64,000 bases of DNA, taken from Heptranchias perlo (taxonomy: Eukaryota). The stretch's first letter is position 1. Each line of letters starts with the position of its first letter. The DNA lies in contig NC_090331.1 of assembly GCF_035084215.1 (NCBI RefSeq), positions 32,488,001-32,552,000 on the forward strand. The letters run 5' to 3'. The notes under the pieces were generated by a model that saw only the letters and a list, made by a program, of their open reading frames with translations, did not search any database and was not told the origin of the DNA. The position numbers and the translations under genes are program-made. Positions 11,978 to 60,252 of this stretch are shown here, piece by piece.

Positions 11978-14159
11978 TTACTTTTTTTGCTCTCAGTTAG
12001 GGCAGTGGTTTAAACTAAGAGCTGGTAGACTGTAACTTGCTATTGCTTTATTAAATTAATAACTTAAGCTAGATAAACTAATTAGTTAATAAAACAAAAT
12101 ATCAAATGAATAAAAACTTTAACTAATTAAATGTATAAAACAAGGTTAGATAGGGTTGGCAGGGCAGGTGGTGTGTCATAACTGCAGCAAGTGGGAGTTG
12201 GTGGAGACCAGTGAGATCCCGAGCAGCCATATCTGCAGTAAGTGTCTGCAACTCGAGGAACTTCGGCTCAGAGTTGTTGAGCTGGAGTCCGAGCAGGAGA
12301 CATTGCGAAGCATCAGAGGGGAAGAGTTACCTGGACACTTTGATCCAGGAGGCAGTCACAGCTCTTAGGTTAGGTAGTAGTTTAGATTTGCTTAGTGGTC
12401 AGGGACAGAAGGCTGTGACTGCAAGTCAGGCAGGTATGGGGACCCAGGATGCAGTGATGGAGGAGCCTCAGCCTTTGACCCTGTCCAACAGCTACAAGGT
12501 ACTTGCTACCTGTGTGGATGAGAAGAAAGACTTCAGGGAGGATGGGCAATTTGATCACAGTACCTTGGTACAGGAGGCCATTCAAGTGGGGGAAGTAAAA
12601 AGAAATGTGGTAGTGTTAGGGGATAATAGTTAGGGGGTAGATATTGTTCTCTGCAGCCACAACCGGGAGTCCCCGAAGGCTGTGTTGTCTGCCTTGTGCT
12701 AGGGTTAAGGATATCTCCTCGTGGCTGGAGAAGAACTTGGAACATGAGGGGGAGGATCCAGTTATCGTGGTCCATGTAGGAACCAACCACATAGGCAGAA
12801 CTAGGAATGAGGTTCTGCTGAGGGAGTTTGTGGAGATAGGGTCCAAATTAACAAGCAGAATCTCAAAGGTAATAATCTCTGGATTACTACCAGAGCCACG
12901 TGCAAATTGGCATAGGGTCACACCGATCAGAGCGTGGCTCAAAGGAGTGGGAGACAGGGGTTTCAATTCAAGGGGCACTGACACTAGTACTGGGAAAAGA
13001 GGGAGCTATTCCGTTGGGGCGGGTTCCACTTAAACTGGGCTGGGACCGGGGTCCTGGCGAATCAAATAACTAGCGTGGTCGATAGGGCTTTAAACCAAAA
13101 AGGGGGAGGGGGGGGTTCAGGTAAGGGTAAATTTATAAATCCAAAGAAAAAAGTCAAGATCATAGAGCAGTGCAGTGATCTGGGTAAAGATAAGCAGAGT
13201 GTGTCAGGAAGGGACAGAGAGTTTAACAGTAATAGCGTATCAGTGAATAAGCTCAAATCAGGGAAAAATAGTAAAAAGTTAAAATTAAAGGCACTTTATC
13301 TGAATGCATGAAGTATTCGTAACAAGTTAGACGAACTAATGGCACAAATAGAGATAAATGGGTTTGATCTAATAGCTATTACTGAAATGTGGTTGCAAGG
13401 TGACCAAGGTTGGGAACTAAATATTACAGGGTACTTGACTTTTAGAAGTCAAGACAAAATGGAAAATGAGAGGGCAGGGGGTAGCCCTGCTAATAAAGGA
13501 TGGCATAAAGGCAGTAGTGAGAAAGGATCTTGGCTCAGAAGATCAGGAAGTAGAATCAGTATGGGTGGAGATAAGAAATAACAAGGGACAAAAAACACTA
13601 GTGGGAGTAGTTTATATGTCCCCTAATAGTAGTTATACTGTTGGACAGAATATTAATCAAGAAATAAGAGGAGCTTGTAACAAAAGTAATGCAATAATCA
13701 TGGGGGACTTTAATCTTCATATAGACTGGGCAAATCAAATTGGCAAAAGTAGTTTGGAGGACAGTTTCCTAGAACAATACGTTGTGGAACCAACCAAGGA
13801 ACATGTTATTTTAGATTTTATCGTGTGCAATGAGACAGGATTAATTAGTAATCTCATAGTAAGGGATCCTGTGAGGAAAAGTGATCATAATATAATAGAA
13901 TTTCACACCGAGTTTGAGAGTGAAGCAGTTAAGTCTGAAACTAGAGTCTTAAACTAAATCAAAGCCAATCACATAGGTATGAGGGGCAAGGTTGATTGGG
14001 AAATTAGATTAAAAGATAAGCAATGGCGAACATTTAAACAAATATTTCATAATTCTCAATGAATATAAATTCCATTGAGGAATAAACACCCAGGGGAAAA
14101 GTGATCCGTGGTTAACTAAAGAAGTTAAGGCTGGTATTAGATTAAAAGAGGCTTATAAT

Positions 14160-14242
14160 CATAGAAATCATAGAATCATAGAAAGGTTACAGCACGGAAG
14201 GAGGCCATTCGGCTCATCGGGTCCGCGCCGGCTCTATGCAAG
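14160..14242 (-). mobile_element. ~83-bp CR1 3' stub nested in ORF2 of the larger CR1
   Basis: Reverse complement resembles 8264-8341 (tail plus hairpin); the host sequence gaggcttataat|gttgccaag resumes afterwards. Confidence 0.88.
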
Positions 14243-16859
14243 ATGTTGCCAAGAAGAGTTGTAAGCCTGAGAATTGGGAGTGTTTTCGAAACCAGCAAAG
14301 GATGACTAAAAAATTGATAAAGAGGGAGAAAATAGAATGAGAGTAAACTTGTAAGGAATATAAAAACATATTGTAAGAGCTTCTACAAAAATGTAAAATG
14401 AAGAAAGTAGTGAAAGTAAACGTGGGTCCCTTAGCGGCTGAGATAGGGGAAATTATAATGGAGAATAAGGAAATGGCAGAGACGTTAAACAAATATTTTG
14501 TATCTATCTACACAATAGAAGACAAAAAAAAATCAGAAATAGTAGGGAACCAAAGGTCTAATGAGAGTGAAGAACTGGAAGTAATTAATATTAGTAAAGA
14601 AAAAGAACTGGAAAAATTAATGGGATGAAAAGCCGACAAATCCCCTGGATCTGATGGCTTACATTCTAGGGTTCTAAAAGAGGTAGCTGCAGAGGTAGCG
14701 GATGCATTGGTTGTGATCTTCCAAAATTCCCTAGATTCTAGAACACTCCCAGTGGATTGGAAGGTAGCAAATGTAACCCTGCTATTCAAGAAAGGAGGGA
14801 GAGAGAAAACAGGGAACTACAGGCCAGTTAGCCTCACATCAGTAGTCAGGAACATGCTGGAATATATTATTAAGGACATGGTAACAGGACACTTAGAAAA
14901 TCATAATAATATGATTAGGCAGAGTCAACATGGCTTTATGAAAGGGAAAACGTGTTTGACAAATCTATTGGGGTTTTTTTGAGGATGTAACTAGTAGGAT
15001 AGATAAAGGGGAACCAGTGGATGTAGTATATTTGGATTTTCAAATGGCATTCGATAAGGTGCCACACAAAAGGTTGTTACACAAGATAAGAGCTCATGGG
15101 GTTGGGGGTAATATATTAGCATGGATAGAGAATTGGTTAATGGACAGAAAACAGAGTAGAAATAAACAAGTCATTTTCAGGTTGGCAGGCTGTAACTAGT
15201 GGGGTGACGCAAGGATCAGTACTTGGGTCTCAGCTATTTACAATTTATATTAATGACTTAGATGAAGGGACCGAGTGTAATGTATTCAAGTTTGCTGACG
15301 ATACAAAGCTAGGTGGGAAAGTAAGCTGTGAGAAGGACACAGAGATATAGACAGGTTAAGTGAGTGGGCAAGAAGGTGGCAGATGGAGTATAATGTGGGG
15401 AATTGTGAAGTTATTCACTTTGGTAGGAAGAATAGAAAAACAGAATATTTTTTAAATGGTGAGAAACTATTACATGTTGGTGATCAGAGAGACTTGGGTG
15501 TCCTGGTACACAAAACACAGAAAGTTGACATGCAGGTACAGCAAACAATTAAGGCGGCAAATGGTATGTTGGCCTTTACTGCAAGGGGGTTGGAGTACAA
15601 GAGTAAGGATGTCTTGCTGCAATTGTACATGGCTTTGGTGAGATCACATCTGGGGTACTGTGTACAGTTTTGGTCTCCTTACCTAAGGAAGGATATACTT
15701 GCCTTGGAGGCGGTGCAACGAAGGTTCACAAGATTGATTCCTGGGATGAAAGGGTTGTCCTATGAGGACAGATTGAGTAGAATGGGCCTATACTCTTGAG
15801 TTTAGAAGAATAAGAAGAGATCTCATTGAAACGTATACGATTCTTAGAGGGCTTGACAGGGTAGATGCTGAGAGGCTGTTTCCCCTGGCGGGAGAGTCTA
15901 GAACTAGGGGGTCATAGTCTTAGCATAAGGGCTGGCCATTTAGGACTGAGATGAGGAGAAATTTCTTCTCTGAAGGTTGGGGAAATTTGGAATTCTCTAC
16001 CCCAGAGGGCTGTGGATGCTTAGTCATCGAGTATATTCAAGACTGAGATCGATAGATTTTTTTGACTCTTAAGGGAATCAAGGGATATGGGGATCGGGTG
16101 GGAAAGTGGGGTTGAAGTCGAAGATCAGCCGTGATCTTATTGAATGGCGGAGCAGGCTCGAGGGGCCGTATGGCCTACTCCTGCTCCTATTTCTTATGCT
16201 CTTACGTTCTTATGACCTTGCTGACAGATGTAGAGAAACGAACATTTCCAGCAAAGTTTTGACTATGTTTTACTTTAGCGGAGACAGTTTAAATTTTAAA
16301 AAAAAGTTTGAAATTATACTGAAAATAGACCAAACACATTTACAGCAATGGTAATAAATCCTCCAGCTGACATCATGGGAATACATTCATTTAACAAAAT
16401 GAATATACATACATATATATAAAAATGTTTGGAAAGAAAAAATGCCTGTTACAGATCTAGGTGCAAGTGATTAATCACAGCACTTAACCTTGCAGTTATC
16501 TATTCCTTTAACAGTCTAAATATACAATATATTAAACTACACTTCCTTACTCCACTCTTGAGCAACGTGTAGTTTAATAAATACACTGCCGGTTATATTA
16601 TTTTGGAAATTAAACTATTTACACCCCCAGCTAGAGGGACAGGACCTTTTTAGCTTGCAGAAGAATATTTGGAATACAGCGAGCGAACCATCTCATTTTG
16701 TTATTCCAACTCTCAGTAAAAATATACCACCTAGTGGCCTAGCTGAAAATAGTTTAGTATTATCCCAAATATGAAAAGTGACAGGCAGCCTGTGGACAAG
16801 AACTTGGATATACCCGACTGAGATGTGACTTTTTTTAAAATTTAAAGATGAAAATGAGA

Positions 16860-28844: not shown

Positions 28845-30021
28845 AAAGGTTCTGAGTGTAATGTATCCAAGCTTGCTGACGATACAAAGTTAGATGGGAA
28901 AGTAAGCTGTGAGGAGGACATAAAGGGGGTGCTTTTAACCCCCAAGAACAGGCGGGTTGAGGGCAGGTAGGAGTTGAAAATAGTTGTTTTTTTGGGTCAC
29001 GAACGCAACCTGGCTTCACTTCTGGGTTTAACATGGGCAGTAAAAGTCCAGGCTTCCCACTAGGAATGCAAAGTCCGAACATTTTGCAGTTGCGACCCCA
29101 AAAAACAACTATTTTCAACTCCCACTGGGGGTTAAAATTACCCCAAAGAGTCTGCAAAGGGATATAGACAGGTTAAGTAAGTGGGCAAGAAGGTGGCAGA
29201 TGGAGTATAATGTGGGGAAATGTGAGGTTATTCACTTTGGTAGGAAGAATAGAAAAACAGAATATTTTTTAAATGGTGAGAAACTATTAAATGTTGGTGT
29301 TCAGAGAGATTTGGGTGTCCTCGTACAAGAAACACAAAAAGTTAGCATGCAGGCACAGTGAGCAATAAGGAAGGCAAATGGCATGTTGGCCTTTATTGAA
29401 AGGGGGTTCTAGTACAAGAGTAAGGAAGTCTTACTACAATTGTACAGGGCTTTGGTGAGATCACATCTGGAGTACTGTGTGTAGTTTTGGCCTCCTTACC
29501 TAGGGAAGGATATACTTGCCTTAGAGGAGGTGCAACGAAGGTTCACTAGATTGATTCCTGGAATGAGAGGGTTGTCCTATGAGGAGAGATTGAGTAGAAT
29601 GGGCCTATATTCTCTGCAGTTTAGAAGAATAAGAGGTGATCTCATTGAAACATACAAGATTCTGAGGGGGCTCGACAGGGTAGATGGTGTGAGGTTGCTT
29701 CCCCTGGCTGGAGAGTCTACAACAAGGGGGCATAGCCTCAGGATAAGGGGTCGGACATTTAGGACTGAGATGAGGAGGAATTTCTTAACAGAGGCTTGGG
29801 ACTCTTCGGAATTCTCCATCCCAGAGGGCTGTGGATGTTGAGTTGTTGAATATGTTCAAGACTGAGATAGATAGATTTTTGGACTCAAGGGGAATCAACG
29901 GATATGGGGATCGGGCAGAAAAGTGGAGTTGAGGTCGAAGATCAGCCATGATCTTACTGAATGGCGGAGCAGGCTCCAGGGGCCGTATGGTCTACTCCTG
30001 CTCCCATTTCTTAGGTTCTTA
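28845..30021 (+). mobile_element. CR1 3' fragment, same subfamily as the 10.2-16.2 kb element
   Basis: Aligns closely with 15270-16200; ORF 29530-29841. Confidence 0.93.
28925..29144. mobile_element. 220-bp MITE with long TIRs nested in CR1
   Basis: ggggtgcttttaacccc..ggagttgaaaatagttgttttttt mirrored at the right end; flanking aaa duplicated. Confidence 0.9.
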
Positions 30022-30443: not shown

Positions 30444-31917
30444 AACAAGCTAACTGATCAGCAGCAAACGTCATAAGAAAGCTGGATTTGGAAAGTCATC
30501 ATTTCTGAAAAATTGTCAGGTTAAACTAATATAAAATAGAGCACAAAAGAACACATTAGAAAATCTACAAAATTTCTTAAAGAAAACGCTCAGCTTTACC
30601 TGAACAACTCTTCAAAAGTTAAGAAGCAAATTACTTGTTTGTTAAATACGATATGTAAATAGGAAACACATTAGAGGTATGCGTTAGAGAGATTTGGGTA
30701 GCTGCAGAAAGACTCGGTCCACAGAAGAGAACCTAGCGTTTCTGGTGAGAAGCTAGGAGGGAAGAAGGAAATAGGAGTGACAATGAGGCTAATCAAGGAA
30801 AATGTTGAACAGTGCAGTTGAATGATACAGCCTTCGCATTGCAGAACCATCTACATTGGAGCTGATTTCAGAGCTTTGGCAACAATGGAGTAACAACCAT
30901 GCATGAGCAAGATTGCATACAGGCAGAGGTTTAAAAGGTATGAAAATTACTTTAATTTTCTGGCTACAGATCTTCAGAGGCCAACAATGTAATGATTACT
31001 TTGCTGGCCTATATGGGAATGCTGAATGCTGAACCAACTGCAGCCTGTAGGAATGGTGGCCAGAGCTGCTTGTGGCAGTGACTTACATTTTGCTGCCAGC
31101 AGAGCTTTGTCCTGGAAAAACCATCACTGGATGCAGGAGTGCTATCTCATTTATATTACAGCAATACTGCTGAAACCTGGGCTGCCATTGGAGGCAGTGC
31201 TGTAATATGAAGGGGGCACGAGTTGAAGTGGATAAATTTGTACCACATGCCAAAATTATATTTTCCAGAGGGATACGTTGGTAAAGTTGAATGAGAATAC
31301 ATGCAACTTGGAGACTGACAAGCAATATTCTTTGTGTAGTTGTGGCTAATTGAATTGGTGATTTGTCACTGAAAAAATGTATAGATTGCATTTGTATAAT
31401 CTGAGATTTTATCAATTCAATGAACTGCAATGTTGTAGCAGAGATCTCTCTAGATATCTCTTATCTAAACACTGATCACAGCTTACTTCTCAGATATTTC
31501 ATTTTAGATTCCCAAACTTAAAACAATCTGATGTCAGCTTAAGAAATGGCTCATTGTACAATTATGTAAAATATATCAACTGCATTACAAATAATTATTG
31601 CCTTTGGAAAAAATTATAGCATTATTGTATTTTAAACATGACATATAGGGCCTGATATTAGGAGGCCAGCGGGTTCGCAGCAGGGGGGGGGGGGGGGTCG
31701 ACTGGGCGCGTGGGTAATGCGCCCAGTGAAATCGGTGGGTTTGGCACGCAATCGCAGGCTAATTGCAGCCACTTACCTTTGCTTCCGGGTTTCGCGCTGG
31801 AAAGCTGCGCAGCGGGCGGACTGCGCATGCGCAGCATAGGCGGTCAGCTGGCGGAGCCCTGTTTAAAGGGGCAGTCCTCCATTAACTGATGCTGCAGAAA
31901 ATAAGCAAAATTACAGC

Positions 31918-32163
31918 ATGGAGCAGCCCAAGGGGAAGGCTGCTCCCAGGTTTAATGATGCCTCACTCCAGCTATTATTGGATGGGGTGAGGAGGAGGGG
32001 GAGGACAGAGATCTTCTCCCTGGCAGGTGGGAGGAAGTGGCCTGCCTCTGCCACCACGAAGGCCTGGCTCGAGGTGGCAGAGGAGGTCACCAGCACCACC
32101 AACATATCGCACACCTGCATACAGTGCAGGAGGCGCTGCAATTACCGAAGTAGGTCAGCTGAA
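31918..32163 (+). pseudogene. Harbinger Myb/SANT-like protein, first exon
   Basis: APRFNDASLQLLLDGV..KAWLEVAEEV..IQCRRRCN motif followed by donor GTGAGT at 32164. Confidence 0.8.
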
Positions 32164-32702
32164 GTGAGTACACTTACTCATTCCCCTACACTCCGTCTGC
32201 CACATCACCACCCATCACCACCCCCACCCCACATCTCCTTCTGCACTGCCAACACTACTCTGTCACATCACCCCTCACACCCACTCAAACCTCATCCTCA
32301 TCTTACCTGCATTTACTCACCTCGCCAGTACTCATCCCGCCACTACCACTCAACCCAATCCTCATACAATTTCATGGCTCTGTCTCATACTCACCCTCTC
32401 ATGCATCTCTTTCACTGTCAGCCTCACTCAACCTGCCACTACCTGAGCTGCAGCCACAGGGCATGCATCACATATATGCAGTAGGAAGCGTAAGGCAAAC
32501 GTGTCGTGAGCATGAAGGGGATGCACAAGGGTGTTTGAGGGTTTGTCATGGTTTTTACTTATATTTAATTTCTGATCAACTCACATCACATATTATATTG
32601 TCACCACTACTGCCACGTCTTTGCGAATCTTGTCTGGTTTGTGCAATATTGCCCTTTCCTGAGGATCGCTATGAAGACCCACAACTGATGCCACCCATTG
32701 TG

Positions 32703-33218
32703 TCACTGCAGAGTGGGTGTAGGTGTATTTGCAGGGCTCTTTTGTGCAGATTGAGAGATGTCGGCGATGTCCCCGGTGGCATCCTGGAAGGATGCGAAGA
32801 AGTTGTTGAGGGCAGTGGTGACTTTGACAGCGACAGGTAAGATGATGGTGGTCAGGCCAGCCTGGAGCAGCTCGGCATGAAGGAGGCTGCAGATGTCCAC
32901 GACTACATGTCGAGTGACTCTGAGCCTCCGTGTGCACTGCTGCTCAGAGAGGTCCAGGAAGCTGAACCTCGGACTGTAGACCCTGTGGCGAAGGTAGTGC
33001 CTTCTGCGACGCATCTCTCTCTGTGGTTGCCCTCCCTCCTGCTGTGCAGGTGGATGTGTCACAGCACTGTGTTGTGGAGCTCCAAGTGTCAGAGGTGGAC
33101 GGCGTGGCCGGCGATGTTGCTCGTCCTTCGGGGAGGTCATGACTGCAGCTACGGCGGCCCCCACCCGGAAGATGTACATCTGAGGGGGTCTGCAAGGTAG
33201 GTAAATGTGTCTGGACAC
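32703..33218 (-). pseudogene. Harbinger (HARBI1-like) transposase N-terminal fragment
   Basis: RVYSPRFSFLDLSEQQCTRRLR..LPVAVKVTTALNNFFASFQDATGDIADISQSA; DDE core absent. Confidence 0.8.
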
Positions 33219-33803
33219 CGGGGTAAGTGTGCAAGTTTGTGAATTTTATTGTTAGGAGGAGGGTGGTGAAGGCCAAACTTTATCCAAAGTGACAGAGTGG
33301 CCTCCGTCAAAAGGACCTTTGCAGCTGCCACAGGCTGATGGCTGCAACACGTCCATTTCAACTGGGAGTGTTTCCCCCAGTACGGGAAACAGTCCCAGTT
33401 GACTTGAAAATCCCACCCCTCTTAAAATATCACGTTAATCAGGTCTGTAAATGACCTGAAGTACCTAAATAATTACCTTAAGTGGCATCCCGCCGGGGCA
33501 TGTAAGCGCGTCACTGGGGAAACCGGAAGTGGGCGGATTGGAGCCGGGCTCCGGACCCGCCCCGGGAATCCCCGATTTTTGCAGCCCCCCCGCCACGAAC
33601 GCACCCGCTCGGGGGTGCGAAAATCGAGCCCATAGTGTATTTAATACATGATCTAATAAATTTAAGCTTTTTGTGCAGATGTTGGAAAATACTGGAGTAA
33701 TTAGTAAATTAGCAATTTGACAGATATTGCAGAATTTATCTGTGGTTTTCCTTTAAATGAGCATTTCTTTACTTTACAAAAATAAATTATAACAAAATCA
33801 TAC

Positions 33804-54187: not shown

Positions 54188-54788
54188 CAAGGATGTCTTA
54201 CTGCAGTTATACAGGGCCTTGGTGAGATCACACCTGGAGTATTGTGTGCAGTTTTGGTCACGTTACCTAAGAAAGGATATACTTGCCACAGAGGGAGCAC
54301 AGCGAAGGTTCACCAGACTGATTCCTGGGATGGCAGGATTGTCGTATGAGGAGAGATTGGGTCGACTAGAGTTTAGAAGAATGAGAGGCGATCTCATTGA
54401 AATGTATAAAATTCTGACAGGGCTAGACAGACTGGATGCAGGGAGGATGTTTCCTCTGGCTTGGGGGGGGGGGTCTAGAGCGAAGGGGTCACAGTCTCAG
54501 GATATGGGGTAGGGCATTTAGGACTGAGATGAGGGGAAATTTCTTCACTCAGAGGGTGGTGAACCTGTGGAATTCTCTACCACAGAAGGCTGTGTAGGCC
54601 AAGTCACTGAATATATTTAAGAAGGAGATAGATAGATTTCTAGACAGAGAAGGCATCAAGGGGTATGAGGAGAGAGTAGGAATATGGTATTGAGATAGAG
54701 TATCAGCCATAATCATGTTGAATGGCAGAGCAGGTTTGAAGGGCCAAATGGCCCACTCCTGCTCCTATTTTCTATGTTTCTATGTTCT
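54188..54788 (+). mobile_element. CR1 3' fragment
   Basis: ORF 54219-54512; tail ttctatgtttctatgttct. Confidence 0.92.
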
Positions 54789-55347: not shown

Positions 55348-55411
55348 CTGTGGAATTCTCTACCACAGAAGGCTGTGTAGGCCAAGTCACTGAATATATT
55401 TAAGAAGGAGA
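55348..55411 (+). repeat. 64-bp exact duplicate of 54565-54628
   Basis: ctgtggaattctctaccacagaaggctgtgtaggccaagtcactgaatatatttaagaaggaga is identical at both sites. Confidence 0.97.
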
Positions 55412-55703
55412 ACAGCTGAGAGGAGCCGAGCCGAGCGGAGGGAGCGTCCGATAAAAGGCGGGATTTCAGAGCGCTGAGAACAGCTGAGAGGAGCCGAGCC
55501 GAGCGGAGGGAGCGTCCGATAAAAGGCGGGATTTCAGAGCGCTGAGAACAGCTGAGAGGAGCCGAGCCGAGCGGAGGGAGCGTCCGATAAAAGGCGGGAT
55601 TTCAGAGCGCTGAGAACAGCTGAGAGGAGCCGAGCCGAGCGGAGGGAGCGTCCGATAAAAGGCGGGATTTCAGAGCGCTGAGAACAGCTGAGAGGAGCCG
55701 AGC
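55408..55703 (+). repeat. 68-bp tandem monomer array (4 identical units plus a partial) at the CR1 5' end
   Basis: Unit gaacagctgagaggagccgagccgagcggagggagcgtccgataaaaggcgggatttcagagcgctga starting at 55410, 55478, 55546, 55614 and 55682. Confidence 0.98.
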
Positions 55704-55725
55704 GGAGCTGCGACCGAGTTCGAAG

Positions 55726-55795
55726 TGACGTCAGGAATCAGATCGGGACGCGACACAGGGGAGGCACCTGATTGGTGAGTAGGTTCAGGTGAGTA
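55726..55795 (+). promoter_or_regulatory. CRE + inverted CCAAT + splice-donor-like cassette
   Basis: TGACGTCA 55726-55733, ATTGG 55771-55775, GTGAGTA 55775-55781, CAG/GTGAGTA 55789-55795. Function inferred. Confidence 0.5.
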
Positions 55796-56025
55796 TTTCT
55801 CCTTATCTACAGTAACTGAAGTAAAAGGAAAGGGAAGGTCTGCAGGTCTTATAGGAAGTAGCGTTTATTTTTTAGTGAATCAAGGTCCCTAGTGTAGTTA
55901 ACATTCTCTAAATTGAGAACAATTTAAAGGAGTAAACTCCTTAAAGGGAGTGGTAAGTAGTTTTTCTTTCCTTTTTTTTTCTCTTGACATTGTAGTTGTT
56001 CTTAAGCTAATTTAAGGGTTAAGTC

Positions 56026-56973
56026 ATGGCAGGAGATCTCAGCGCCGTGTCATGTTCCTCTTGTGGGATGTGGGAATTCAGGGCTCCTTCCTGTATCCCT
56101 GATTCCTTCACCTGCGGGAAGTGTGTCCAGCTGCAGCTATTGTTTGACCGCTTGACGGCTCTGGAGCTGCGGATGGACTCACTTTGGAGCATCCGCGATG
56201 CTGAGAAAGTCGTGGATAGCACGTTCAGTGAGTTGGTCACACCGCAGATAAAAATTACTGAGGGAGATAGTGAATGGGTGACCAACAGACAGAGGAAGAG
56301 TAGGAAGGCAGTGCAGGGGTCCCCTGCGGTCATCTCCCTCCAAAACAGGTATACCGTTTTGGATACTGTTGGCGGAGATGGCTCACCAGGGGAAGGTGGC
56401 AGTGGCCAGGTTCATGGCACCGTGGCTGGCTCTGCTGCACAGGAGGGCAGGAAAAAGAGTGGCAGAGCTATAGTGATAGGGGACTCGATTGTAAGGGGAA
56501 TAGACAGGCGTTTCTGCGGACGCAACCGAGACTCCAGGATGGTATGTTGCCTCCCTGGTGCAAGGGTCAAGGATGTCTCGGAGCGGCTGCAGGACATTCT
56601 GGAGGGGGAGGGTGAACAGCCAGTTGTCGTGGTGCATATAGGCACCAACGATATAGGTAAAAAACAGGATGAGGTCCTACAAGCTGAATTTAGGGAGTTA
56701 GGAGTTAAACTAAAGAGTAGGACCTCAAAGGTAGTAATCTCAGGATTGCTACCAGTGCCACGGGCTAGTCAGAGTAGGAATGACAGGATAGCTAAGATGA
56801 ATACGTGGCTTGAGAGATGGTGCAAGAGGGAGGGATTCAAATTCCTGGGCCATTGGAACCGGTTCTGGGGGAGGTGGGACCAGTACAAATTGGACGGTCT
56901 GCATCTGGGCAGGACTGGAACCAATGTCCTAGGGGGAGTGTTTGCTAGTGCTGTTGGGGAGGGTTTAAACTAA
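56026..56973 (+). CDS. CR1 ORF1p: zinc finger, coiled coil, SGNH/GDSL esterase-like domain (315 aa)
   Basis: CSSC..CGKC, leucine heptads, GDSIV, HIGTNDI, DGLHL. Confidence 0.93.
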   Translation: MAGDLSAVSCSSCGMWEFRAPSCIPDSFTCGKCVQLQLLFDRLTALELRMDSLWSIRDAEKVVDSTFSELVTPQIKITEGDSEWVTNRQRKSRKAVQGSPAVISLQNRYTVLDTVGGDGSPGEGGSGQVHGTVAGSAAQEGRKKSGRAIVIGDSIVRGIDRRFCGRNRDSRMVCCLPGARVKDVSERLQDILEGEGEQPVVVVHIGTNDIGKKQDEVLQAEFRELGVKLKSRTSKVVISGLLPVPRASQSRNDRIAKMNTWLERWCKREGFKFLGHWNRFWGRWDQYKLDGLHLGRTGTNVLGGVFASAVGEGLN

Positions 56974-59908
56974 TGTGGCAGGGGGATGGGAACCGATGCA
57001 GGAAGTCAGTGGGAAATAAAGTGGTGACAGAAACAAAAGGCAGTAAGGGAGAGTGTACAGAACATGACCGGACAGATGGTCTGAGAAAGCAGGGCAAAGA
57101 CCAAGGGAAGACTAGATTAAACTGCATTTATTTCAATGCAAGAAGTCTGATGGGCAAGGCAGATGAACTCAGGGCATGGATGGGTACATGGGACTGGGAT
57201 GTTATAGCTATTACTGAAACATGGCTAAGGGAGGGGCAGGACTGGCAGCTCAATGTTCCAGGGTACAGATGCTATAGGAAAGATAGAGCAGGAGGTAAGA
57301 GAGGAGGGGGAGTTGCGTTCTTGATTAGGGAGAACATCACGGCAGTAGTGAGAGGGGATATATCCGAGGGTTCACCCACTGAGTCCATATGGGTAGAACT
57401 GAAAAATAAGAAGGGAGAGATCACTTTGATAGGATTGTACTACAGACCCCCAAATAGTCAACGGGAAATTGAGGAGCAAATATGTAAGGAGATTACAGAC
57501 AGCTGCAAGAAAAATAGGGTGGTAATAGTAGGGGACTTTAACTTTCCCAACATTGACTGGGACAGCCATAGCATTAGGGGCTTGGATGGAGAGAAATTTG
57601 TTGAGTGTATTCAGGAGGAATTTCTCATTCAGTATGTGGATGGCCCGACTAGAGAGGGGGCAAAACTTGACCTCCTCTTGGGAAATAAGGAAGGGCAGGT
57701 GACAGAAGTGTTAGTGAGGGATCACTTTGGGACCAGTGATCATAATTCCATTAGTTTTAAGATAGCTATGGAGAAGGATAGGTCTGGCCCAAAAGTTAAA
57801 ATTCTAAATTGGGGAAAGGCCAATTTTGATGGTATTAGACAGGAACTTTCAGAAGTTGATTGGGAGAGTCTGTTGGCAGGCAAAGGGACGTCTGGTAAGT
57901 GGGAGGCTTTCAAAAGTGTGTTAACCAGGGTTCAGTGTAAGCACATTCCTTATAAAGTGAAGGGCAAGGCTGGTAGAAGTAGGGAACCTTGGATGACTCG
58001 GGAGATTGAGGCACTAGTCAAAAATAAGAAGGAGGCATATGACATGCATAGGCAGCTGGGATCAAGTGGATCCCTTGAAGAGTATAGAGATTGCCGGAGT
58101 AGAGTTAAGAGAGAAATCAGGAGGGCAAAAAGGGGATATGAGATTGCTTTGGCAGATCAGGCAAAGGTGAATCCAAAGAGCTTCTACAAATACATAAAGG
58201 GCAAAAGGGTAACTAGGGAGAGAGTAGGGCCTCTTAAGGATCAACAAGGTCATCTATGTGCGGAACCACAAGAGATGGGTGAGATCCTGAATGAATATTT
58301 CACATCGGTATTTACGGTTGAGAAAGGCATGGATGTTAGGGAACTTGGGGAAATAAATAGTGATGTCTTGAGGAGTGTACATATTACAGAGAGGGAGGTG
58401 CTGGAAGTCTTAACGCGCATCAAGGTAGATAAATCTCCGGGACCTGATGAAATGTATCCCAGGACGTTATGGGAGGTTAGGGAGGAAATTGCGGGTCCCC
58501 TAGCAGAGATATTTGAATCATCCACCGCTGCAGGTGAGGTGCCTGAAGATTGGAGGGTAGCAAATGTTGTGCCTTTGTTTAAGAAGGGCGGCAGGGAAAA
58601 GCCTGGGAACTACAGACCAGTGAGCCTGACATCTGTAGTGGGTAAGTTGTTAGAGGGTATTCTGAGGGACAGAATCTACAGGCATTTGGAGAGGCAGGGA
58701 CTAATTAGGAACAGTCAGCATGGTTTTGTGAGAGGAAAATCATGTCTCACGAATTTGATTGAGTTTTTTGAAGGGGTAACCAAGAAGATAGATGAGGGCT
58801 GTGCAGTAGACGTGGTCTACATGGACTTCAGCAAAGCATTTGACAAGGTACCGCATGGTAGGTTGTTACATAAGGTTAAATCTCATGGGATCCAAGGTGA
58901 GGTAGCCAATTGGATACAAAATTGGCTTGACGACAGAAGACAGAGGGTGGTTGTCGAGGGTTGTTTTTCAAACTGGATGCCTGTGTCCAGCGGTGTGCCT
59001 CAGGGATCGGTGCTGGGTCCGCTGTTATTTGTTATTTATATTAATGATTTGGATGAGAATTTAGGAGGCATGGTTAGTAAGTTTGCAGATGACACCAAGA
59101 TTGGTGGCATTGTGGACAGTGAAGAAGGTTATCTAGGATTGCAACGGGATCTTGATAAATTGGGCCAGTGGGCCGATGAATGGCAGATGGAGTTTAATTT
59201 AGATAAATGTGAGGTGATGCATTTTGGTAGATCGAATCGGGCCAGGACCTACTCCGTTAATGGTAGGGCGTTGGGGAGAGTTATAGAACAAAGAGATCTA
59301 GGAGTACAGATTCATAGCTCCTTGAAAGTGGAGTCACAGGTGGATAGGGTGGTGAAGAAGGCATTCAGCATGCTTGGTTTCATTGGTCAGAACATTGAAT
59401 GCAGGAGTTGGGATGTCTTGTTGAAGTTGTACAGGGCATTGGTGAGTACTGTGTACAGTTCTGGTCACCCTATTATAGAAAGGATATTATTAAACTAGAA
59501 AGAGTGCAGAAAAGATTTACTAGGATGCTACCGGGACTTGATGGTTTGACTTACAGGGAGAGGCTAGACAGACTGGGACTTTATTCCCTGGAGAGTAGGA
59601 GGTTAAGGGGTGATCTTATAGAAGTCTATAAAATAATGAGGGGCATAGATAAGGTCGATAGTCAAAATCTTTTCCCAAAGGTAGGGGAGTCTATAACGAG
59701 GGGGCACAGATTTAAGGTGAGAGGGGAGAGATACAAAAGGATCCAGAGGGGCAATTTTTTCACTCAAAGGGTGGTGAGTGTCTGGAACGAGCTGCCAGAG
59801 GCAGTAGTAGAGGCGGGTACAATTTTGTCTTTTAAAAAGCATTTGGACAGTTACATGGGGAAGATGGGTATCGAGGGATATGGGCCAAGTGCAGGCAATT
59901 GGGACTAG
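56973..59908 (+). pseudogene. CR1 ORF2p (APE endonuclease plus RT), single frameshift near 59445
   Basis: 841-aa ORF (YFNARS, ITETWL, GDFN, SDHN, QGSVLGP, FADD); the C-terminus continues in another frame (ORF 59399-59908). Confidence 0.95.
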
Positions 59909-60252
59909 CTTAGTGGTATAAACTGGGCGACATGGACATGTTGGGCCGAAGGGCCTGTTTCCATGTTGTAACTTCTATGATTCTATGATTCTATCAATCA
60001 CAAACATTGTTAAACCTTGGCGATTCATACAATATGGATGGATAAATTTTCATCCTGGTAATTATTTTAGAGGCAATGACCTCTTGTTTAAGTATAATTA
60101 TCTGCAGTGACGTTTTCAAACCACTTTGACACAGATCAAAGAGTTAGTCAAACCCACTACCCCAGGCTGGTCCTGACAGCTATGTTTGAGATCTTTGAGA
60201 AGGTCGTCGATTGGGTGTCGTCCACTTTGACAAACAGCTCAGTGGCCTGGGG

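Follow-up and report, generated by a model that had tools for sequence, protein, structure and literature searches.

The window analysed here, a 64,000-nucleotide stretch of Heptranchias perlo DNA (contig NC_090331.1, positions 32,488,001 to 32,552,000 of the assembly GCF_035084215.1), is rich in repeats and harbors two plus-strand CR1-type LINEs that reach into their 5' regions, one young and one old (Table 1). Both begin with head-to-tail monomers, 68 bp long and repeated 4.4 times in the young element, 54 bp long and repeated 31.9 times in the old one, with a TATA or TATA-like box in each unit, as an earlier note on this DNA had described.

Table 1. Features of the two CR1 elements and their 5' junctions (positions in the window)
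Feature	Position	Strand	Remarks
Old CR1, whole element	about 10222-16215	+	decayed
11-mer 5' of old array	10210..10220	+	only other plus-strand copy in the window at 11927-11937
Old CR1 5' array	10222..11903	+	32 boxes
Old unique 5' UTR	11904..12155	+	TGACGTCA at 11937, ATTGG at 11963, GGTGAGT at 11970
Old CR1 body	12156..16215	+	decayed ORF1 and ORF2, nested insertion, short-repeat tail
Probable source of filler	54565..54628	+	64/64 identical to filler; located 783 bp upstream of it, within a 3' fragment of an older CR1
Filler at young 5' junction	55348..55411	+	64 bp, templated
Young CR1, whole element	55408-59994	+	esterase-type
Young CR1 5' array	55408..55708	+	period 68, 4.4 copies, 99% matches (Tandem Repeats Finder)
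First young box	55450..55457	+	GATAAAAG, one mismatch to TATAWAWR
Young TATA-like boxes, GATAAAAGG	starts 55450, 55518, 55586, 55654	+	n=4
Young unique 5' UTR (tether)	55709..56025	+	TGACGTCA at 55726, ATTGG at 55771, GGTGAGT at 55774 and 55788; no ATG
Young ORF1	56026..56973	+	open; N-terminal Cys motif and SGNH/GDSL esterase
Young ORF2 (endonuclease and reverse transcriptase)	56949..59908	+	single break, a 13-bp gap with frameshift near 59445
Young 3' tail	59973..59994	+	ATTCTATG repeats, CR1-type

By the features tested, both elements appear to belong to the CR1 clade, judging from ORF1, the tail and a match by eye to CR1-labelled consensuses; the features found are an endonuclease/reverse transcriptase (RT) ORF2, an esterase-type ORF1 and an ATTCTRTG-type tail without poly(A). 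An esterase-type ORF1 is given as a CR1 feature in the accessible text of PMC13343379, and a CR1-type tail of short repeats is described in that of PMC2734521. ORF1 of the young element matches Lipase_GDSL_2 (Pfam, E 4e-13), and its ORF2 matches Exo_endo_phos and RVT_1. In the old element, remnants of ORF1 are recognized by tblastn, and ORF2 by an endonuclease match together with tblastn matches; the body contains 12 stops in 1062 aligned codons and at least 8 frame changes, and the tail is a degenerate short repeat related to that of the young copy. No further element in the window keeps an ORF1. The earlier note took both CR1s to be full-length. Each indeed possesses the esterase ORF1, the endonuclease/RT and the tail, but completeness is unprovable from single copies, neither element has a clear target-site duplication (the best match is 5 bp), and the young ORF2 is broken. 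The two were also said to represent different subfamilies; they are distinct but further apart than that, with 65-70% DNA identity in the three alignable blocks, which makes them different families rather than close subfamilies.

The ORF1 search yielded 81 homologues, of which the named ones come from cartilaginous fishes, amphibians and a bichir; the young ORF1 is 76-78% identical to sawshark proteins, and the other nearest named relatives are from sharks and rays. In the 23 of these 81 homologues that were inspected, no array-derived peptide is present at the N-terminus, and a scan of prokaryotic contigs with the ORF1 alignment returned, from 471 candidates, two weak loci (24-28% identity) with no sign of CR1. 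Two manta ray gene models named transmembrane protein 204 start with CR1 esterase sequence, by exonisation or through an annotation artefact, and an NCBI protein labelled Pseudomonas aeruginosa, encoded on a contig of 4 kb and 62% identical to shark CR1 ORF1, is probably vertebrate contamination in a bacterial assembly. Within the old ORF2, an 86-bp reverse-strand insertion with a CR1-like tail (14158-14243) is 88% identical to 8266-8351. Elsewhere in the window, at about 31645-33635, lies a GC-richer element of 2 kb with two convergent degenerate reading frames, which we take to resemble a PIF/Harbinger DNA transposon; a search of three frames against Pfam produced nothing at E 0.001.

The four full units of the young array are identical to one another, and the array is CpG-rich (observed/expected ratio 1.17). 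Next to the TATA-like box of each unit lies a GC-box-like hexamer, and the unit also includes a CAGCTG E-box. All four boxes read GATAAAAG, with G in position 1, and none of the four is a perfect TATAWAWR; a box with at most one mismatch arises in a shuffled 68-mer with a frequency of 0.032 (20,000 shuffles). In the old array, delimited by Tandem Repeats Finder at 10224-11903 (period 54, 90% matches), 30 of the 32 boxes are TATAAAAG, a perfect TATAWAWR expected in a shuffled 54-mer with a frequency of 0.00085 (20,000 shuffles), and the remaining two are TACAAAAG. In both LINEs, the boxes lie on the sense strand, and they are unlikely to result from composition (P about 0.001 and 0.03). Pyrimidine-purine steps occur at +26, +32 and +36 from the box in the young unit and, in the old array, at +28/+32 in the 54-bp units and at +31 in the 44-bp units and behind the last box. 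For functional TATA promoters with a TATAWAWR box and a pyrimidine-purine step, the accessible text of PMC1779604 gives a TATA-to-start range of 28-34 nt; such a step is found in this range behind 7 of 7 boxes examined, young and old, which is a weak test because these steps are common. The 68-bp and 54-bp units have rather more in common than the earlier note put forward, namely, a second, GA-rich block of about 25 nt, but their overall similarity is borderline (84 of 1000 shuffles are as good). Motifs are labelled here with the conventional names CRE, CCAAT, E box, GC box, NRF1, initiator and splice donor.

The young 5' end was previously placed 26-29 nt from the start of the box of a missing monomer, and this phase was read as a trace of the RNA start site. 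The distance is nearly right, but the end has five possible breakpoints, +26 to +30, because the last 4 bp of the filler that precedes the element are common to the first unit, so that the element starts somewhere in 55408-55412. The only other copy of the filler in the window is its probable source (Table 1). A 4-bp microhomology join to templated filler makes this a repair-type junction rather than a clean start-site marker, and the young end as a clean start site is ruled out by the filler. Flank-copied extra 5' nucleotides and microhomology joins are known for inserts of the L2 clade; according to the accessible text of PMC4245944, they accompany mostly 5'-truncated inserts, and a few full-length ZfL2-1 inserts join in the same manner. 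The young end overlaps the 28-34 range at three of the five possible breakpoints (+28 to +30) and lies upstream of the +32 step. Neither the +26 nor the +32 step is inside this overlap; a TATA-set start would fit the end, which nevertheless singles none out. In the old element, the array begins at +10 to +13 and is not in TATA phase. One of the two 5' ends in the window is in phase, with a chance expectation of 0.2-0.36, and the phase of the young end is not diagnostic of a start site. As an observation in its own right, 55348-55411 is a clean natural case of flank-derived extra nucleotides at a LINE 5' junction. An 11-mer just upstream of the old array recurs exactly at +31 from the last TATA box. 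It may mark a real start site and so bring the old end into line: a template jump could have added the start of a TATA-set RNA, or the 11-mer could represent the genuine 5' terminus of the family, filler or chance.

Taken together with the consensus data described below, the sequence of these arrays suggests that the array is probably the promoter of the element, made of TATA-type core-promoter modules with a start about 30 nt downstream, each unit promoting the next. In each unit, the box would bind TBP and set the RNA polymerase II start approximately 28-34 nt downstream, within the same or the next unit. The resulting RNA would drop the box that made it and retain every downstream box, so that a new copy would still be transcribable. 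Every round would cost at least one box, the most upstream one being lost, and the lost units would be regained in the genome, where the array is a minisatellite subject to slippage and unequal exchange. The conserved block behind the array would be inside every transcript and would probably add activator input. Between families, the units would be replaced fast, with TATA-less units filling the same slot in some.

The main support for this reading comes from Supplementary Table 2 of PMC13343379, which provides curated CR1-group consensuses with the first 400 nt of each, so that longer arrays and later boxes are invisible. The 124 elasmobranch CR1 rows (white shark, 24; whale shark, 16, not counting a possible CR1-1 row; catshark, 23; dogfish, 24; sawfish, 12; stingray, 19; skate, 6), many of them 5'-truncated, were read and counted by hand, with merely partial repeats left out of the tandem count. 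Clear tandem units of about 28-290 bp are present in 20 of the 124. These consensuses span all six elasmobranch species plus skate, and their unit sequences are unrelated. Twelve of the 20 tandem families have a box within two mismatches of TATAWAWR, perfect in six, and eight lack one (white shark 2, 4, 5, 7a and 23; catshark 7a and 7b; dogfish 7). The catshark families ScyCan_CR1-7a and -7b have TATA-less tandem units with an octamer-like motif, joined in 7b by an inverted CCAAT, which is a different promoter type at the same position.

The position of the consensus start relative to the box of the missing unit could be measured in 14 families, namely, the 12 with a box, dogfish 7 (with a three-mismatch box) and whale shark 8 (with the phase borrowed from whale shark 11). 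The starts fall at +29 in HypSab_CR1-12, +32 in RhiTyp_CR1-2a, +34 in ScyCan_CR1-11b and +28 in RhiTyp_CR1-8, followed by +35 in RhiTyp_CR1-7 and SquAca_CR1-15b and +27 in SquAca_CR1-9; the other 7 of 14 miss the window of expected positions (+20, +22, +42, +59, +79, about +100 and +104). The range of +28 to +34 includes the starts of 3 of the 6 families that have a perfect TATA in a tandem of their own (0.43 expected, P about 0.006) and of 4 of the 14 measurable families overall (P 0.015). A wider window of +27 to +36, chosen after seeing the data, captures 7 of 14 (P 0.0002). With one family per lineage, 2 of 9 to 3 of 9 start at +28 to +34, and P ranges from 0.11 for the least favourable choice to 0.015. 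Because the counts were made by hand and the consensus ends were, according to the accessible text of PMC13343379, set by automatic extension and curation, with many first bases being of low confidence, these phase counts are suggestive, not proof. The claim that each unit acts as a promoter for the next is partly supported, mainly by the consensuses in which initiator-like sequence lies some 30 nt behind the TATA of a tandem unit and coincides with the consensus start (7 of 14 at +27 to +36). A TATA box is not required, given the eight tandem families without one.

The clearest case is the stingray family HypSab_CR1-12, with intact ORF2 in 208 of 839 copies. In its 168-bp unit, CCAAT, GC-box-like and NRF1-like motifs precede a perfect TATA, followed at +29/+30 by a pyrimidine-rich initiator-like run; the next unit begins at this run, and so does the consensus. 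A TATA promoter would be expected to give the starts observed behind a perfect TATA at +29, +32 and +34 in three units of unrelated sequence. They are not a prediction of the alternative under which the units are promoter or enhancer modules like those of mouse L1, with starts set by elements around the start or downstream of it (E-box, GA-rich block and GC boxes) and with the A-rich box being incidental or an RNA hairpin loop. We consider this explanation unlikely, even though the eight TATA-less families fit it and the ends of mouse T and G monomers cluster at a YY1 site without TATA (PMC6454616, as far as its accessible text goes). It also draws on the window itself: both 5' ends are located just 5' of the shared GA-rich block, by 5-9 nt and 1-3 nt (noticed afterwards), and the old box lies within a short inverted repeat (for example, 11128-11153), the old unit folding better than shuffled sequence (matched by 1 of 200 shuffles under RNA parameters and by 12 of 200 under DNA parameters). 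In several shark consensuses, moreover, a splice-donor-like motif and its complement flank the box. The young unit, in contrast, does not fold better than chance (142 of 200 shuffles are as good). An RNA structure common to both units is ruled out, given that only the old unit folds.

As for the imperfect box of the young element, the literature contains, as far as we found, nothing on GATAAAA acting as a TATA box. Such a box has reportedly been encountered in the promoter of a chicken globin gene. At the 5' ends of caecilian L2 elements, GATAAAAG and TTTAAAAG alternate in one place, behind a GC-rich run and CRE-like sites, and this swap suggests that the young box is a TATA variant. In individual rows outside the elasmobranch CR1 set, TATA-type boxes are also present inside the 5' ends of alligator, tortoise and hummingbird CR1 and of caecilian and chimaera L2, with a direct repeat visible in tortoise and chimaera, a hint that such boxes reach beyond sharks.

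Behind the arrays, the unique segments of the young and old elements are related (4 of 500 shuffles are as good) and share a block of CRE-like, inverted-CCAAT and splice-donor-like motifs (55726-55794 and 11937-11976), conserved behind unrelated arrays. The same TGACGTCA/ATTGG/GGTGAGT block recurs in many shark CR1 consensuses behind differing units, and the old unique 5' UTR belongs, by eye, to the same family as spiny dogfish SquAca_CR1-3 and -18; SquAca_CR1-3 has no TATA within its approximately 50 upstream nucleotides. The absence of ATG from the young unique UTR is not significant (0 versus 1.9 expected, P 0.11). The block is the only 5' part that is clearly related between the young and old elements, and, because it persists whatever unit precedes it, one can suppose that it is the real internal promoter, that the arrays are exchangeable upstream boosters or passengers and that the shortest active RNA starts just before the block. 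The consensuses of SquAca_CR1-18 and CarCar_CR1-8, which start almost at the block, and the 11-mer at +31 from the last old box, as a possible start just ahead of it, agree with this account. We nevertheless regard it as quite improbable: several ray and whale-shark families have a TATA unit without the block in the same form, and starts within arrays must occur, since a new insertion could not inherit an array located upstream of the start, whereas family consensuses and both copies in the window do carry arrays.

The old array has a history of its own. Its first units, of 42, 44 and 54 bp, are diverged, whereas units 7-31 are all 54 bp and homogeneous, with one private variant in 1350 bp and 10 shared variant types; a 10-unit block is duplicated, with a 233-bp exact match at a 10-unit lag. 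Two of the six boxes in the diverged 5' units are mutated, and these units therefore show no sign of selection on the box. The old body is 12% different from a sibling fragment at 29155-30021, a value that may in part be a subfamily difference; if half of it arose in the old copy, the array should have accumulated about 80 private changes. The homogeneity of units 7-31 against this divergence of the body indicates that the array was amplified or homogenised after insertion. The 32 units as the state of an active element are ruled out, the array being far younger than the body. Rfam yielded no matches; a search of protein sets (8000 candidates) with the old array translated in antisense gave no hit at E 0.01, and a further antisense search returned just 65 repeat proteins of low identity (at most 43%).

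The expansion to 32 units in a dead element raises the alternative that the arrays are neutral minisatellites grown from a single-copy 5' promoter, the multiple copies having no role. Hairpin-prone units, which favour slippage, would fit this scenario, as does the lack of any further copy of either 5' end in the window, the prokaryotic contigs and the protein sets. It is nonetheless very improbable, considering that tandem units of unrelated sequence occupy the same position in 20 consensuses, that 4.4 identical units are already present in the young copy, which is nearly intact, and that a single upstream TATA promoter would be gone after one round. If the array is, as we favour, a stack of promoter modules, expansion could replenish the losses, as the earlier note proposed. 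In-place expansion does occur, in an old dead copy; the resupply of active masters by the same route would be an extension of this observation.

The logic of preserving a promoter in this manner is not new: it is known from mouse L1, and upstream tandems are known from HeT-A and Penelope. In the Loeb 1986 model of mouse L1, as summarised in the accessible text of PMC7778262, tandem monomers preserve the promoter through truncation; mouse L1 monomer promoters are also covered in PMC2894050 and PMC5381506, and very long arrays are ascribed to unequal crossing-over (PMC7778262, PMC6454616; all in the parts accessible to us). Like the A, G/F and T types of L1Md, the CR1 elements described here have tandem 5' monomers in variable copy number that are joined to ORF1 by a unique tether. 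However, L1Md elements belong to the L1 clade and have TATA-less CpG-island monomers of about 200 bp, often YY1-based and with broad starts, whereas the units here are 54-68 bp long, each containing a TATA-type box that is followed at about 30 nt by initiator-like steps, and precede CR1-type ORFs and a CR1-type tail. Most likely, the CR1 arrays work like the mouse L1 monomer system without being members of it, as far as can be judged from sequence comparison. In HeT-A and Penelope, upstream sequence in a neighbouring repeat drives the downstream copy (accessible text of PMC2377424, citing Danilevskaya 1997). The HeT-A promoter is the 3' UTR of a whole upstream element, and the tested Penelope promoter is internal and TATA-less (PMC2377424); here, a short unit is repeated inside one 5' end and has no match to the 3' end of the element, and the stretch of CR1 3' sequence that precedes the young copy is the 64-bp filler.

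Repeats as such have been noted in CR1 5' regions before. Turtle and pufferfish CR1 5' UTRs contain 32-bp direct repeats with E boxes according to PMC2734521, whose accessible text does not mention TATA; PMC13343379 reports repeating subunits of 100-500 bp in some ORF1-less CR1-group elements only, and its accessible main text makes no mention of TATA, promoter or tandem. The arrays described here resemble the turtle and pufferfish repeats in their location in the 5' UTR and in the E box of the young unit but differ from the known CR1-group repeats in that both elements encode an esterase ORF1, their arrays are longer and every unit contains a box. With the vertebrate TATA core promoter, they share the TATAWAWR box and a pyrimidine-purine step 28-34 nt further on, the differences being that the module is putative, recurs every 54-68 bp inside a retroelement and, in the young copy, has one mismatch in the box. 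The view that TATA-monomer arrays were undescribed for CR1 is upheld by the full-text literature, where we found no description; subscription papers, Repbase and Dfam may hold a prior note.

LINE promoters are generally described as internal and TATA-less, and CR1 transcription is poorly known. If the promoter reading is true, a major vertebrate LINE group would keep a conventional TATA promoter through stacked expendable copies; one would expect RNA to start about 30 nt after each box, new copies to have fewer boxes than the copies they came from and activity to depend on unit number. The CR1 group accounts for 22-34% of shark and ray genomes (accessible text of PMC13343379); host genes that receive full-length insertions would acquire core promoters in clusters, along with splice-donor-like sites, and repeat libraries that collapse arrays would miss the promoter. 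A broader generalization, possible but still doubtful, is that much of the vertebrate CR1 group has no internal promoter and instead relies on tandem expendable upstream modules (activator sites, TATA box and initiator), one of which would be spent per retrotransposition, with minisatellite regrowth and with module types swapped between families. Under this generalization, unit number would be a generation counter that limits the spread of a lineage.

Splice-donor-like motifs recur in several contexts. In RhiTyp_CR1-2a, -7, -8 and -11, ScyCan_CR1-6, -16 and -19 and CarCar_CR1-14, the box is flanked by such a motif and its complement; the letters of these arms vary between families while their pairing is kept, and a hairpin around the box could possibly mask the donor site. 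A 5' UTR intron of the young element could end at the pyrimidine tract with AG located at about 55965-55996, and the donor site of the unique block may also act via U1 binding without splicing. In the old array (10546-11903), five unit copies have gained GGTGAGT directly after the box and four have gained an upstream ATG, both gains coming from single variants that spread through the array.
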